The translations under genes were made by a program, and so were the position numbers. Below are positions 7,136-40,663 of a stretch of DNA of 64,000 nucleotides, one piece after another. The notes beneath the pieces were generated by a model. The model searched no databases. It saw only the letters and a program-made list of their open reading frames with translations, and was not told the origin of the DNA. The DNA is taken from the sequence record NC_054909.1; one strand, written 5' to 3'. The first letter of the stretch is position 1; each line of letters opens with the position of its first letter. The DNA comes from Escherichia phage EC121.

Positions 7136-7405
7136 TTATCTAAGTAAGCAGTATGCTTGGAACACTTTCTCCATCATCTTTTTAAATTCATGAATATCTA
7201 TGTAATGACTAGTTAAATCAGCGTGATATAAAAAGTCTAAAAACTTTTCATGCGTGCTAACATATTCACTTTCATTTAATTCAGAAACATGGCTTTCCCA
7301 ATATCCAACACCAGTCTTATTTGGGAAAAATGAAATTTTCATGTATTGATCAACATAGAAAATGCCATAATTTTCAATAGTAATAGAAATATTAATAAAT
7401 TTCAT
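7136..7405 (-). CDS. hypothetical protein (89 aa)
   Basis: ORF in tight minus-strand series. Confidence 0.55.
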   Translation of the reverse strand: MKFINISITIENYGIFYVDQYMKISFFPNKTGVGYWESHVSELNESEYVSTHEKFLDFLYHADLTSHYIDIHEFKKMMEKVFQAYCLLR

Positions 7406-7617
7406 ACATTCATCAACTTAGCCGCTTCAAGAGCTGCATCTAGTGAATCAAATTGGTCAACATATTCAATCAATTCGCCGTAATTAGCATATAACCACCA
7501 TTGGCTAAATTCATACTCAAGGATGAATCCGTTTCCTTCAATTTGAGTTAAACCAATGCCATTTGTATTTACTTCATATCCAGCAAGACGCAAATCGTTA
7601 ATAAGAGCTTCGTTCAT
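7402..7617 (-). CDS. hypothetical protein (71 aa)
   Basis: ORF with 4-nt start/stop overlap to neighbour. Confidence 0.55.
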   Translation of the reverse strand: MNEALINDLRLAGYEVNTNGIGLTQIEGNGFILEYEFSQWWLYANYGELIEYVDQFDSLDAALEAAKLMNV

Positions 7618-23184: not shown

Positions 23185-23739
23185 TCACTTTGAAATCATA
23201 GTTGGAATGACAGAATCAAGATAAGTCTTTAGTGCAATAGCTTCATCTTTGGTAAATGTGACAATATGTGCTCGAGAATCATCAATTTGGCGAACAAGTA
23301 CGACATCGCCATCTTCATAAGAAGTCTTGACATCCAAAGTCGTAGTATAATTTGCAGCTACTGGATTAATAATGCTAGCACCGCGATCTTTAGCCCATTG
23401 AAGTTTAGCCTTTTCGGGTGTTTCGATTGTTTCAGATTCCAAGAATTCTTTCACCTTGGTAACGAATGTTGCCCAATTGTTGATAGAAAGACACATAAAT
23501 TCAGTTTCAATATTACCGCCGTAAAGGCCACGATAAAAACGAACTTGGAGGTCGCCTGTAATATTAGTTACACCGGTAACTCCTGAGGGAGCATAAGATA
23601 AAATCGCAGCCAGTTCCATAGGAAGAATAGTAATATTATCGTCTTCCTGCGTCAGAACGTATACATTATCACGTTTTTCGATAACCAGGTCACCGAACAA
23701 ATCAGTTGTTTCAATTACAGCTTTCATATTATTTACCAA
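23185..23739 (-). CDS. hypothetical protein (184 aa), paralog of previous gene
   Basis: shared C-terminal motif DEAIALKTYLDSVIPTM. Confidence 0.6.
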   Translation of the reverse strand: MVNNMKAVIETTDLFGDLVIEKRDNVYVLTQEDDNITILPMELAAILSYAPSGVTGVTNITGDLQVRFYRGLYGGNIETEFMCLSINNWATFVTKVKEFLESETIETPEKAKLQWAKDRGASIINPVAANYTTTLDVKTSYEDGDVVLVRQIDDSRAHIVTFTKDEAIALKTYLDSVIPTMISK

Positions 23740-23914
23740 TTAAAGTTTCAATATAAGAATCAAGATTTACTTTAGCTTCTTCCATAAGAGTTTTGTATTT
23801 AATCTTGTTAGCATGTCCGGAGAAAGCTGATTCATCAATAATTGTTGATGTATGAACAGCTCTACTATACGTCTCAATTAATTCTCTTAATTTAAAAGCC
23901 TGCTCACTTGTCAT
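23729..23914 (-). CDS. small helical protein (61 aa), S/T-x-EQ family
   Basis: N-terminal MTSEQAFKL, C-terminal YIETL. Confidence 0.5.
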   Translation of the reverse strand: MTSEQAFKLRELIETYSRAVHTSTIIDESAFSGHANKIKYKTLMEEAKVNLDSYIETLIGK

Positions 23915-24046
23915 TACATACTCCTTTGAATAATATCAATAATGTTGTTCACCAAATTATACGTAAACATTGGGTAATTATATTGAATCATCACATACAC
24001 AACAAACAAAACTTTCATTCTCTTCTCCTTGGCAGTTGACAAGATT

Positions 24047-24075
24047 ACTATACCATAACCTTGCCAACTTGTAAA
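24047..24075 (-). promoter_or_regulatory. sigma70-type early promoter
   Basis: GTTTACA -35 and TATAGT -10, 17-nt spacer. Confidence 0.4.
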
Positions 24076-24078
24076 CCA

Positions 24079-24252
24079 TTAAATGACGTTTTCGATAAAA
24101 TTCTGAAGCTTTGTATGAGCATCAACCATGATTTTCATTTCTTCCTTTGCGAAAGCTGTGCCTCTTTCACGAGAAGAACATTCATAGTCAGAAACTGCAT
24201 TAGCATATTCTTCAATTAGCTTCATTAAAAACATCTGCTTTTCAGTTTTCAT
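24079..24252 (-). CDS. small helical protein (57 aa, below ORF-track cutoff), S/T-x-EQ family
   Basis: MKTEKQMFL... ending NFIENVI; ATG overlaps upstream stop region. Confidence 0.4.
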   Translation of the reverse strand: MKTEKQMFLMKLIEEYANAVSDYECSSRERGTAFAKEEMKIMVDAHTKLQNFIENVI

Positions 24253-24436
24253 TATTCCACCTAATCATTTCAAGATATTGAACTAACTTAGCTTTGGATT
24301 TATCCAAATCCTTTTTAGCTGTTTCTATACCGTCGTATGAATATCCTTCACAATGCTCAACTGCTAATTGATATGAATCTATTTCAACATCACGTGCTAA
24401 TTTAATGATTTTTTCAAACTGTTCGTGTGTTAGCAT
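24242..24436 (-). CDS. small helical protein (64 aa), S/T-x-EQ family
   Basis: N-terminal MLTHEQFEKI, C-terminal YLEMI. Confidence 0.5.
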   Translation of the reverse strand: MLTHEQFEKIIKLARDVEIDSYQLAVEHCEGYSYDGIETAKKDLDKSKAKLVQYLEMIRWNNEN

Positions 24437-24438
24437 AC

Positions 24439-24642
24439 TTAAACTCTCGTATTATGATCGATAATTTCATCAAGAAACATATCTAACGCTTCTAAAGCAT
24501 TATCAACTTTAGTTTCAAAGTCTTTAATGCCTTTATTCGAAATACCCGATGAATACCAAGCAAAGTCAATCAGCTCTTCATCTGCTTTACGAATTGAAGC
24601 CACTAATTCCTTGATTTTATCTGCTTGCTCTATACTAATCAT
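24439..24642 (-). CDS. small helical protein (67 aa from internal ATG), S/T-x-EQ family
   Basis: [10 protein letters not shown]; ATG overlaps upstream stop by 1 nt. Confidence 0.5.
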   Translation of the reverse strand: MISIEQADKIKELVASIRKADEELIDFAWYSSGISNKGIKDFETKVDNALEALDMFLDEIIDHNTRV

Positions 24643-24830
24643 TATTCCACCACATATGACAGAGAGAATATTGCACACGCCATGTGAGTTGCAACTTCAT
24701 CACACATATTATAACGTTTCTTAAGAAGTTCTACCAGTTCTTCACTAGTAACTTCATCCATGTCGACGAAAAAATCACCATTAATGATGACGTAGATATT
24801 TCCTTCTTGATTGAGTGCTTCAATTTTCAT
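24642..24830 (-). CDS. hypothetical protein (62 aa from internal ATG)
   Basis: ATG at 24830 with GGAG RBS downstream of promoter 24859..24887. Confidence 0.5.
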
Positions 24831-24858
24831 GATGTTCTCCTCTTTATCCGATAGTTGT

Positions 24859-24887
24859 ATAGTATCACAGCTCAAACGGAAAGTAAA
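24859..24887 (-). promoter_or_regulatory. sigma70-type early promoter
   Basis: GTTTACT -35, TACTAT -10, conserved CTATC box downstream. Confidence 0.45.
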
Positions 24888-24898
24888 CCGGTAAAATG

Positions 24899-24920
24899 AA
24901 AAAAGTCTCCCGAAGGAGAC
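24899..24920 (-). terminator. intrinsic terminator downstream of 24926..25312 gene
   Basis: hairpin GTCTCC-CGAA-GGAGAC followed by T-run on minus strand. Confidence 0.5.
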
Positions 24921-24925
24921 TAATG

Positions 24926-25312
24926 TTATTCGAGGGAAAGAAGATACTTACTCTGGTAAAACATCCCAGTAATATCATCTATCGTGCTTTGAATGGCTGG
25001 AGGCATTTCTTTATAAATGCTGTTAGATTGGTCTAGTATGCGATCAATCATTTTAATTGTGTCGGTAGGAAGTTTACTGGCATCTGGAATTGAAGGTGTG
25101 TATTTTCTACCAGAATACCCCAAATATTGCTCACCAAATTTATCAATCAAATCTGGCAATTCGGAGAAAATAAAATCGTATGCTTTGTGTCTAGCATAAC
25201 TTTTAGTTTCAAAATGTGCAGAATGAAAATAAGCTTGTGCAGCCATTAATAAACCTAAGTATTCATCTGCCTTTGAAGGTTTTCCACTTTGTGAAAAGTC
25301 GCTGAATTTCAT
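24926..25312 (-). CDS. hypothetical protein (128 aa)
   Basis: ORF whose start overlaps rI stop. Confidence 0.6.
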
Positions 25313-25602
25313 TCAGTCTCCAATTTAATGTTCATAATTCTAGCGTATGATTGTGCCATCTCCGCGCCTCGTTCTATACATTCGAAATCAGAAGAGCACG
25401 GGTCATTTTTATAGGTCGTTCTCATAAAACTATAGAATTGTTCAGATGATTCTACGCTTTTATTTTCAAAAAGCATATAAACATGTCTAATACCAGATTC
25501 CATAAATTTATCAAAATGAGGATCGACATTCGCTTCAATCGATGGAGATAAAACAAATGACAATCCTAGCATGGCAAATAGTGCCGTTGCTTTTAAGGCC
25601 AT
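25309..25602 (-). CDS. rI: lysis inhibition regulator rI (membrane-anchored periplasmic protein)
   Basis: 97 aa, N-terminal signal anchor, location beside tk as in T4. Confidence 0.8.
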   Translation of the reverse strand: MALKATALFAMLGLSFVLSPSIEANVDPHFDKFMESGIRHVYMLFENKSVESSEQFYSFMRTTYKNDPCSSDFECIERGAEMAQSYARIMNIKLETE

Positions 25603-25614
25603 AAAGGCCTCCTA

Positions 25615-25827
25615 TCATTTTTGTCCTGTATTTACTTTATGCCGATGCACGGCCTTAACTTTATCAAGGTATTTTTCAAAATTTCGCAATCTAGTATAGT
25701 CTGCCGGAGATTGGTTGAGTGATACTTCTCGACGCAAAGCTGAAATGATATTTCCAACTTCCCTACGAATTTCATCTAATTGAAGCACAGTAAGATTGCG
25801 AAGTTGCTTTTCAGTTAATTGTAGCAT
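25615..25827 (-). CDS. small helical protein (70 aa)
   Basis: [12 protein letters not shown]..., resembles S/T-x-EQ family. Confidence 0.5.
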
Positions 25828-25869
25828 ATATACCCCTTTAGTTAGATAAACCTATTTATAACTTTTGCA

Positions 25870-26451
25870 CTAACCGAGCTTTTTAGTTAATTCGTTCCAG
25901 TGTTTTCTACACAAAGAAACATAAATTTCATCACCAATACAGATTTGATTACCTTCTTTAACTGGTGTTCCATCTTCCATTAATCGAGCTGTCATAATCG
26001 CTTTTTTGCCGCAATGACAAACTGCCTTTAGTTCAATAAGTTTATCTGCAATCGCTAAAAGTTCTTTAGAACCTTCAAACAATTTTCCAGCGAAATCAGT
26101 CCTTAATCCATAAGCCATAACAGGAACATTATATGTATCAACAATTCGGCTTAATTGGTGCACCTGTTCAGTTTTTAAAAACTGAGCTTCATCTACAAAT
26201 ACGCAATGAATATCTTTTTGTGCTTCAGCCCATTTATAGAACTCGAAAATATCCATATCATCTGTAATAATATTCGCTTCCTGTTTAATTCCAATGCGAG
26301 AAACGACTTCGCAGACAGAATCGCGAGTATCAATAGCAGGCTTAAGAACTAATACACCCATTCCACGTTCTTTATAATTATGTGCAGCAGTCAAAAGAGA
26401 AGCAGATTTTCCAGCATTCATTGCTGCATAAGTAAAAATTAAACTCGCCAT
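25870..26451 (-). CDS. tk: thymidine kinase
   Basis: 193 aa; P-loop MNAGKS, VDEAQF, Zn-finger CHCG...C..C. Confidence 0.95.
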   Translation of the reverse strand: MASLIFTYAAMNAGKSASLLTAAHNYKERGMGVLVLKPAIDTRDSVCEVVSRIGIKQEANIITDDMDIFEFYKWAEAQKDIHCVFVDEAQFLKTEQVHQLSRIVDTYNVPVMAYGLRTDFAGKLFEGSKELLAIADKLIELKAVCHCGKKAIMTARLMEDGTPVKEGNQICIGDEIYVSLCRKHWNELTKKLG

Positions 26452-26452
26452 C

Positions 26453-26641
26453 TTAGTCCTTAGTTAAATTTTCTAAATATGTTTCTAAATCATTTTCAGC
26501 TTTATCGATAGATTTTACTAATTCGTAATATGTTTCGGCATCTCCATATTCAGAAGATATTTCAAAAGACAAATCCTTTTCTAAACTAACAATTTCACTA
26601 ACTAAAAATAATATTTCGTTCTTTTGTTCGCGAGTAATCAT
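26453..26641 (-). CDS. small helical protein (62 aa), S/T-x-EQ family
   Basis: MITREQKNEI, C-terminal YLENL. Confidence 0.5.
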   Translation of the reverse strand: MITREQKNEILFLVSEIVSLEKDLSFEISSEYGDAETYYELVKSIDKAENDLETYLENLTKD

Positions 26642-26823
26642 AATGAATTTATATAATCAATGAGTTCTTGTTCTTTATTATCGAATTCTTTAGAAAGTTC
26701 TTCGTACTCGTTTGCACTAAAAGGACCGCATTCATTACAAACTTTTTCCAATTCGCTATTTTTATCCATAACTTCGTGGATAAGAGAAAAGAGTTTGTCT
26801 TTTTGTTCTTTACTCAGACTCAT
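26638..26823 (-). CDS. small helical protein (61 aa), S/T-x-EQ family
   Basis: MSLSKEQKDKL, C-terminal YINSL. Confidence 0.5.
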   Translation of the reverse strand: MSLSKEQKDKLFSLIHEVMDKNSELEKVCNECGPFSANEYEELSKEFDNKEQELIDYINSL

Positions 26824-26993
26824 ATATTAAATCCTAGAAGTTTTAAGATAATTCGCTTTTGCTTAAATATTTCCATCGTTAAATGATCAGTATCTTTTTG
26901 ACCAATTCCAATAGCAAAACCCTTATTTACGGCAAGTTCAATTAAATTATCAATATTGCGTAAAACTTCATAGCGTAACTCAAAATTATTCAT
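26820..26993 (-). CDS. small hypothetical protein (57 aa, below ORF-track cutoff)
   Basis: ATGA start/stop overlaps at both ends link it into the gene chain. Confidence 0.4.
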   Translation of the reverse strand: MNNFELRYEVLRNIDNLIELAVNKGFAIGIGQKDTDHLTMEIFKQKRIILKLLGFNI

Positions 26994-27217
26994 TTTGGTT
27001 CACCTTCTTTAACGAAATCCGGATAAGGATTAAATCCAGAATAAAATCCTTCACCTTTATGATTGCTACAACCCTTGTTCGAGCAATAGCACCAATAATC
27101 GAAATCACAAGCCATTTCATCGTTGCATAAAGCAAAAACAACCGGCCACTTACACTTTTCACAGTGGGCATTTTTAAGAATACTAGTTTGGCTCATAACC
27201 ATGTAACCTTTAAGCAA
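26990..27217 (-). CDS. hypothetical Cys-rich protein (75 aa)
   Basis: ten cysteines incl. CEKC, CSNKGC. Confidence 0.5.
   Translation of the reverse strand: MLKGYMVMSQTSILKNAHCEKCKWPVVFALCNDEMACDFDYWCYCSNKGCSNHKGEGFYSGFNPYPDFVKEGEPK

Positions 27218-39965: not shown

Positions 39966-40662
<697 letters not shown>

Positions 40663-40663
<1 letters not shown>

Follow-up and report, generated by a model that had tools for sequence, protein, structure and literature searches.

Six small early-region genes of Escherichia phage EC121 match one family of predicted helical hairpins, DUF7438

We analysed a 64,000-nucleotide stretch of the Escherichia phage EC121 genome (NC_054909.1; hereafter the window), in which an original prediction, made from the sequence alone, had described a family of at least seven small helical proteins with a shared S/T-x-EQ N-terminus, encoded on both sides of rI and tk. 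By sequence comparison, the segment around 23500-27000 is a Tequatrovirus (T4-like) early region carrying mobD.x genes, rI.-1, rI, rI.1, tk, tk.1-tk.4 and vs. In a megablast search it matched 540 phage records, nearly all of them Tequatrovirus, with ECP52 and G4507 the closest at 98% identity. Gene order was taken from the annotated orthologous stretches of G4507, T6 and T4 and runs, from high to low coordinates, regB, vs.1, vs, tk.4, tk.3, (RB32ORF111c), RB32ORF110c, tk.2, tk.1, tk, rI.1, rI, rI.-1, a terminator, mobD.5, mobD.4, mobD.3, mobD.2a, mobD.2, RB14ncORF103c and mobD.1. Every gene of the regB-mobD.1 block lies on the minus strand, and transcription proceeds from high to low coordinates. 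All seven small open reading frames (ORFs) singled out in the original prediction are present on the minus strand with the N-termini and tails that had been quoted, and their size range of 57-70 amino acids (aa) is correct. Six of the seven genes are, on the profile evidence given below, true diverged paralogues of Pfam DUF7438 (PF24219), namely the RB14ncORF103c-like gene (hereafter ORF103c), mobD.2a, mobD.3, mobD.4, tk.1 and tk.2. In the list, E is the expectation value, and the leave-one-out and shuffle tests are those described in the next paragraph.

26638..26823, minus strand: tk.2 orthologue, 61 aa, net charge -8; Pfam E 6.2e-19, 68.6 bits; phrog_653; leave-one-out E 3.4e-5; 0/2000 shuffles
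26453..26641, minus strand: tk.1 orthologue, 62 aa, net charge -10; Pfam E 3.2e-15; phrog_653; leave-one-out E 3.7e-5
24439..24642, minus strand: mobD.4 orthologue, 67 aa, net charge -7; Pfam E 6.5e-16; phrog_653; leave-one-out E 1.1e-6; hhalign 92-95% to mobD.3, tk.1 and ORF103c
24242..24436, minus strand: mobD.3 orthologue, 64 aa, net charge -4; Pfam E 1.1e-16; phrog_653; leave-one-out E 8.3e-5
24079..24252, minus strand: mobD.2a orthologue, 57 aa, net charge -2; Pfam E 3.7e-15; phrog_2758, with a cross-match to phrog_4859; leave-one-out E 2.4e-4; 0/2000 shuffles
23729..23914, minus strand: RB14ncORF103c-like gene, 61 aa, net charge -1; Pfam E 2.6e-15; phrog_4859, with cross-matches to phrog_653 and phrog_2758; leave-one-out E 1.8e-5

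mobD.4 was counted from the ATG at 24642 and not from a longer ORF beginning with GTG. PF24219 matches the six ORFs end to end (profile positions 1-57) at 56.5-68.6 bits and E 1e-15 to 6e-19, where the gathering cut-off is 25 bits. Because the curated model may include these very sequences, we made independent tests of the family. Pairwise identity among the six paralogues is 19-32%. A hidden Markov model (HMM) built from five members recovered the sixth at E 1e-6 to 2.4e-4 among the 905 ORFs of the window, with the top non-member at E 0.025-1.1. Furthermore, the six scored 17-26 bits, and each one outscored every one of its 2000 composition-preserving shuffles (shuffle maxima 12-17 bits), so that the resemblance goes beyond composition. 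An [ST]xEQ motif falls within the first 9 residues in 6 of the 220 ATG ORFs of at least 40 aa, compared to 0.3 expected, and a scan for the extended N-terminal motif together with the tail motif selected exactly the six members. When profiles of the orthologue groups, each built from database matches, were aligned with hhalign, the links were 98.3% for tk.1-tk.2, 96.3% for mobD.3-tk.1, 94.9% for mobD.3-mobD.4, 92.6% for mobD.4-tk.1, 92.0% for ORF103c-mobD.4, 84.7% for ORF103c-tk.1 and 79.6% for mobD.3-tk.2; these links among five groups (80-98%) are full-length and in register. mobD.2a is the weakest link, at 9.6% (E 3e-3) and to ORF103c only, and its membership is backed by the Pfam, leave-one-out, shuffle and PHROG cross-match results. 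Profile comparison of the kind proposed with the original prediction thus joins the six through PF24219 and leave-one-out HMMs and, with mobD.2a as the weak link, through hhalign; we have little doubt about their family identity and fold.

The fold was modelled for tk.2, and that of the other five members was read from the alignment. The AlphaFold2 model of tk.2, calculated from the six-sequence alignment, has helices at residues 5-30 and 37-60 with a loop between them and a mean predicted local distance difference test score (pLDDT) of 91.7. Model and alignment show each member as a predicted single antiparallel two-helix hairpin, and the description of the six as small helical proteins holds on this basis. 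The consensus of 39 family sequences reads M-I-T-x-E-Q-a-x-k-[IL]-x-x-L-[IV] ... e-x-x-G ... S ... A-x-x-x-L-x-x-[YF]-[IL]-E-x-[IL]. In the tk.2 model the conserved T/S directly precedes the first helical residue of helix 1; by general helix-capping rules this residue probably caps the helix at its N-terminus (N-cap), and E-Q would fill the first turn. The conserved tail, L-x-x-[YF]-[IL]-[ED]-x-[IL], appears in model and alignment as the last a/d/e hydrophobic turn of helix 2, packed on the start of helix 1. With the N-terminal motif at the start of helix 1 and the tail at the end of helix 2, both motifs would therefore be the two ends of one hairpin. Conservation of the N-terminus is at the protein level, because the N-terminal codons differ between paralogues. 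Net charge over the family is -1 to -11, and no signal-peptide-like or membrane-spanning hydrophobic stretch was found in the family sequences, which together argue for proteins that are soluble and do not bind nucleic acid.

The family is already catalogued, as DUF7438 in Pfam and as phrog_653, phrog_2758 and phrog_4859 among the PHROGs, and the window proteins are near-identical to database entries. An HMM search of 1.84 billion cluster representatives returned 43 matches at E <=0.001, nearly all 57-70 aa long, and a word-indexed search returned 113 clusters (90% identity), every one of them from contigs of T4-like coliphages or Shigella phages. Where a member could be assigned to a taxon, it belongs to the T4-like phages (Tevenvirinae) of Enterobacterales. 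A few distant metagenomic members occur as single copies within arrays of anonymous small ORFs, and the contigs L003 and L004, which carry distant members, had no match among sequenced phages. The C-terminal extensions of two family proteins, P0134 and P0142, matched no Pfam domain. One metagenomic protein, P0129 (contig Ga0643777_0346107, 98-457, plus strand), is 119 aa long and consists of two DUF7438 hairpins head to tail with no linker.

Copy numbers were obtained from HMM scans of fetched loci, the count for EC121 being that within the 64-kb window. There are six copies in G4507 and T6 (Tequatrovirus), as in this window, three clear copies in Merlin (Moonvirus), and three each in STML-198 (Gelderlandvirus) and P896 (Gaprivervirus). 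In the scanned loci of these four genera, two copies are found upstream of tk and one or more downstream of rI.-1. The window six are orthologues of the T4 proteins Tk.1, Tk.2, MobD.3, MobD.4 and MobD.2a and their DUF7438/PHROG relatives, with the same length, motifs and genomic slots; the sole difference from the T4 set is copy number, with six intact genes here compared to four intact genes and a truncated mobD.2a in T4 (Tequatrovirus). mobD.2a is intact (57 aa) here and in T6, RB18 and others, whereas its T4 version (850-966 of the T4 locus; P0104) is 38 aa long with a different tail. ORF103c and RB32ORF110c are missing from T4 as well, and the reference phage therefore carries a decayed set. 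In the T4 gene table phrog_653 is assigned only to mobD.3, mobD.4, tk.1 and tk.2 (PMC11879866), which speaks against additional copies in other parts of the T4 genome. In the locus of Citrobacter phage Merlin a DUF7438 ORF (E 4.6e-18) lies at 7358-7552 on the plus strand, in an unannotated gap between CPT_Merlin119 and CPT_Merlin118, and by its sequence is a gene missed in the RefSeq record.

Selection was measured as the pooled Nei-Gojobori ratio of non-synonymous to synonymous substitution (dN/dS) across 7-8 Tequatrovirus genomes. The ratio was 0.04 for tk.2, 0.08 for mobD.2a, 0.13 for mobD.4 and 0.22 for mobD.3, with 0.02 for tk and 0.12 for rI as controls. Thus, the four measurable paralogues are under purifying selection within Tequatrovirus. 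mobD.4 varies much more than its paralogues and has 49 clusters at 90% identity, a proportion of synonymous differences (pS) of 0.26 and insertions and deletions in the loop; its loop length is polymorphic, giving forms of 60, 63, 67 and 70 aa that include a GIK duplication. This variability suggests mosaic exchange between lineages.

The placement of the family in an early region agrees with expression data from T4, where the orthologues have early RNA, the proteins of mobD.3 and mobD.4 are early and those of tk.1 and tk.2 belong to the middle period (PMC9697503). The same study detected T4 family proteins by mass spectrometry (PMC9697503). In a CRISPRi-ART screen the guides for mobD.2a, mobD.3, mobD.4, tk.1, tk.2 and rI.1 were all scored 'Not Fit', that is, knock-down caused no fitness defect (PMC11879866), and the nrdC.11-mobD.3 block, which includes mobD.2a and mobD.3, could be deleted in genome-reduction experiments (PMC9825161). 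The published T4 data thus indicate that the family genes are individually dispensable in laboratory E. coli.

The original prediction had these genes often joined by ATGA start/stop overlaps. Such overlaps are present at ORF110c/tk.2 (26823-26820), where the tk.2 start overlaps the stop of the upstream ORF, and at tk.2/tk.1 (26641-26638). 'Often' is overstated, because the remaining junctions of the small genes are 1-nt overlaps, one 11-nt overlap or gaps of 1-2 nt. tk.1, joined to tk.2 by ATGA, has no obvious Shine-Dalgarno sequence of its own, and a 1-nt gap separates its stop from the tk start codon. An identical 13-nt junction, GGTGGAATAATGA, comprising Shine-Dalgarno sequence and start codon, precedes mobD.4 (24651-24639) and mobD.2a (24261-24249) on the minus strand; duplication or recombination could have left it as a footprint, or it may simply reflect a common constraint on ribosome-binding sites. 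Three further features bear on transcription of the block:

24904..24921, minus strand: terminator-like hairpin after rI.-1, a stem of 7 pairs with a T run behind it; the annotation of phage G4507 has a terminator here
24859..24888, minus strand: putative T4-type early promoter before mobD.5, mobD.4, mobD.3 and mobD.2a (GTTTAC, 18 nt, TGaTACTAT), read directly from the sequence
24047..24075, minus strand: promoter-like site before mobD.2 and ORF103c (TTTACA, 17 nt, TG-extended TATAGT; 10/12), a consensus match only

The hairpin divides the tk-rI transcription unit from the mobD.5-mobD.2a block. The putative promoter at 24859..24888 was recognised by the T4 early-promoter consensus and scores under the threshold of the promoter scan, in which the site at 24047..24075 is the top-scoring promoter-like site of the region. 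The neighbouring gene rI.-1 (24926-25312, minus strand) matches Pfam DUF5856 (E 5e-33) and carries the RefSeq label 'starvation-inducible transcriptional regulator'. It is the most constrained gene of the block, with zero amino-acid change in eight Tequatrovirus genomes (proportion of non-synonymous differences, pN, 0; pS 0.049).

As for function, we give a probability of roughly 35% to a mechanism in which two hairpins combine into a four-helix bundle and bind a host or phage protein. With about 60 residues and a single a/d hydrophobic stripe on each helix, one hairpin would be too small to be stable alone, and its core would be completed by a second hairpin, either an identical one or a co-expressed paralogue, as in the translationally coupled tk.2/tk.1 pair. 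The resulting four-helix bundle would bind or inhibit a host (or phage) protein as a soluble accessory factor; the paralogues would offer different surfaces, and their copy number of 3-6 would drift under host-specific selection, like that of other T4 accessory host-takeover and anti-defence genes. Pairing is suggested by the tandem fusion P0129, by the coupling of tk.2 and tk.1, by dimeric structural analogues and by the two copies that all four genera examined have upstream of tk. That the genes encode real, selected proteins is argued by the dN/dS values of 0.04-0.22 for four of them, by the mass-spectrometric detection and early RNA in T4, and by the syntenic copies in Moonvirus, Gelderlandvirus and Gaprivervirus. 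An accessory binder role is consistent with products that are acidic, soluble, early, dispensable and variable in copy number in T4, and the accessory part of it with the lack of a knock-down effect, the deletable nrdC.11-mobD.3 block, and the loss of ORF103c and truncation of mobD.2a in T4. The original prediction had likewise taken repeated small early paralogues as typical of host-factor binders, which is a reasonable hypothesis and not a result.

The structural analogues came from Foldseek searches with the tk.2 model, which gave no match at E <=0.001 in the PDB or BFVD, returning generic hairpins and uncharacterised phage proteins. The PDB matches were the designed heterodimer DHD127, ZraP, CsoR/FrmR and Rop (best E 0.41, none significant). 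Rop of ColE1, the designed DHD heterodimers, ZraP and CsoR/FrmR share with the tk.2 model an antiparallel hairpin of about 60 residues with an a/d stripe on each helix (TM-score 0.7-0.86). These proteins act as hairpin dimers or oligomers forming helical bundles; for DUF7438 we infer such pairing. They differ from DUF7438 in having no significant sequence or Foldseek similarity to it (E 0.4-4). Rop itself, at TM 0.83 and E 4.1 to the tk.2 monomer model, is compatible in fold, but it binds RNA loop-loop complexes, whereas the acidic DUF7438 proteins are unlikely to bind nucleic acid. The WXG100 proteins ESAT-6 and CFP-10 are likewise helical hairpins from adjacent paralogous genes and form heterodimeric four-helix bundles, and some DUF7438 members carry W and G in the loop as they do. 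The likeness goes no further than architecture: WXG100 proteins measure about 100 aa, have a W-x-G turn and belong to type VII secretion, whereas DUF7438 proteins are 57-67 aa long, lack a conserved WxG loop and lie in a phage early region, and none of the six matched Pfam WXG100. Lambda Kil and T7 Gp0.4, both FtsZ inhibitors, and T4 AsiA are small helical early phage inhibitors that each bind one host protein. DUF7438 proteins resemble them in being small, soluble, helical, early and dispensable in the laboratory, and differ in that Pfam, NCBIfam and PDB searches gave no homology to any solved or annotated protein.

Several points weigh against the pairing mechanism. No partner, toxicity or phenotype has been published for the family, and literature searches for DUF7438, the mobD.x genes or their UniProt accessions returned nothing beyond genome-wide tables. 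The confident model covers the monomer alone, its fold matches are generic (best E 0.41), and the tandem fusion P0129 is known from a single 1.1-kb metagenome contig. T4-like genomes are so conserved in synteny that little about function can be read from adjacency to tk and rI. The absent knock-down phenotype fits redundancy or the lack of a laboratory role equally well, and tk.1 and ORF103c have too few substitutions for dN/dS (pS <0.01). An extension of the mechanism, in which co-expressed paralogues form a combinatorial set of homo- and heterodimeric four-helix bundles, each surface neutralising a different host factor or immune sensor, and in which the rise from three to six copies in Tequatrovirus reflects an arms race with Escherichia and Shigella, is a speculation that we consider unlikely.

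A rival explanation has the acidic hairpins act as anti-defence decoys or DNA mimics, imitating nucleic acid or sequestering an immune sensor and multiplied in an arms race. Most members are indeed strongly acidic (net charge -6 to -11 over some 60 residues), and copies vary from three to six between genera, with two lost or truncated in T4. The T4 region around them also carries counter-defence genes already known as such (vs.4/Acb2), and the tk.4 macro-domain protein is a candidate for another. However, ORF103c (net -1) and mobD.2a (net -2) are nearly neutral, and selection on the measurable paralogues within Tequatrovirus is purifying (dN/dS 0.04-0.22) rather than diversifying. The top match in a PDB profile search of the family was an anti-CRISPR protein, but at E 0.065 it was not significant and covered only part of the profile, and no defence-system phenotype has been reported. 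We therefore regard decoys or mimics as rather improbable. More doubtful still is a role in cis, in which the genes are short spacers whose translation keeps ribosomes on the early polycistronic mRNA, by coupling into tk and downstream genes or by protection from Rho or RegB, while their products are functionless. The tight junctions (ATGA, 1-nt overlaps and the 1-nt gap before tk) and the knock-downs without fitness effect would suit it. It is disfavoured by conservation at the protein level and by detection of the proteins. Between genera the amino-acid sequence is kept although the codons change, and four genes have dN/dS values far under 1. The hairpin predicted with high confidence is a specific fold whose capping and core residues are conserved, the T4 proteins reach levels detectable by mass spectrometry, and distant homologues lie in unrelated gene contexts.

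The remaining alternatives concern the family itself, and the first of them the seventh gene of the original prediction:

25615..25827, minus strand: rI.1, 70 aa, isoelectric point 10.2, net charge +6; no DUF7438 match; phrog_1826; Pfam PF26904 (precomputed)

That all seven ORFs form one family, with rI.1 as a very diverged basic member, is suggested by its N-terminal T-E-K-Q-L and later Y-L-D-K-V, by its predicted long helical hairpin and by its location between two clusters of true members. Yet rI.1 had no match to PF24219, and under the family HMM it reached E 23; in the shuffle test its score of 1.8 bits was equalled or bettered by 136 of 2000 shuffles. Its hhalign links to the family groups were at most 4.6%, and the aligned stretch, residues 12-31, is out of register with the N-terminal 'LTEKQL' and does not include TEKQL. 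It belongs to a different Pfam family and PHROG, and its charge of +6 compares with -1 to -11 for the family. The AlphaFold2 model of rI.1 (helices 6-10, 14-38 and 41-67) has a short N-terminal helix in addition to the hairpin, and its neighbours by structure in BFVD are orthologues of rI.1 and not the phage proteins matching the tk.2 model. In T4 rI.1 has early RNA and late protein, whereas the family proteins are early or middle (PMC9697503). By sequence, then, rI.1 is unrelated to DUF7438, and we consider the seven-member family very improbable. In addition, 6- and 39-sequence HMMs run against the 905 window ORFs of at least 30 codons found no further DUF7438 member (best non-member E 0.2-0.5). 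With rI.1 excluded and no additional member found by the 39-sequence profile, the 'at least seven' genes become six. A last alternative, that the six are alike by chance as small Glu/Lys-rich helices encoded by AT-rich DNA, can appeal to pairwise identities of just 19-32% and to pairwise phmmer E-values mostly >0.01, but in these sequence comparisons it is already refuted by the 0/2000 shuffles for each of the six, by full-length, in-register profile-profile matches of up to 98% and by an independent curated Pfam model at 56-69 bits.

Two other ORFs of the window were considered as members and rejected. The ORF at 40421-40663 (MSEQTIEQ...) carries the N-terminal motif by chance and has E 1.3 under the family profile, and RB32ORF110c (26820-26993), which was tested as its Merlin counterpart scored E 0.0065, gave 0.4% in hhalign. 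UniProt gives the name '50S ribosomal protein L29' to the rI.1 orthologue of Serratia phage X20. Aligned by hhalign with three uL29 sequences, rI.1 matched full-length and in register, but at only P=0.005 and a probability of 7%; Pfam, NCBIfam and PDB sequence searches returned no L29 match for rI.1. That rI.1, basic and modelled as a short N-terminal helix plus a long hairpin, may resemble ribosomal protein uL29 is a weak lead only.

Two database labels attached to family members were examined. The ORF103c orthologue is labelled 'helicase loader' (phrog_4859; RefSeq YP_010070478; 2730-2915 of the locus L001). Loaders were taken to be DnaC/DnaI AAA+ proteins, T4 gp59, lambda P or a loader-sized domain. 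The identity was rejected: ORF103c is a predicted 61-aa hairpin whose only above-threshold Pfam match is DUF7438, beside one weak unrelated sub-threshold match, and it had no match in NCBIfam and nothing below E ~1 among PDB sequences. mobD.4 orthologues are labelled 'molybdopterin-guanine dinucleotide biosynthesis protein MobD' in RefSeq (L001 3440-3643; T4 locus L009 1153-1335). A molybdenum-cofactor (Mob-type) identity was likewise rejected, the only Pfam match being DUF7438 and the NCBIfam matches weak and unrelated; for the family as a whole, the NCBIfam search found no relative and only weak unrelated matches. The label looks like a gene-symbol collision, because mobD itself is a homing endonuclease in the T4 record.

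The six genes are an ordinary, real feature, and no new biology is established by them. Our analysis adds the exclusion of rI.1, the joining of three PHROGs in one family, the count of six copies compared to three to four intact ones elsewhere, a structural reading of the motifs and the flagging of annotation errors. Three errors are thereby corrected: the 'helicase loader' and 'MobD molybdopterin...' labels, both propagating in databases, and the grouping of rI.1 with the family. T4 is the best-studied virulent phage, with many small early genes that have no function on record, and six such genes here collapse into one hairpin family. Because the genes are expressed and conserved, show purifying selection wherever it could be measured and are yet individually dispensable, redundancy may hide their phenotype. 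If the combinatorial set of paired hairpins were true, the family would represent a new class of minimal phage inhibitor scaffold.

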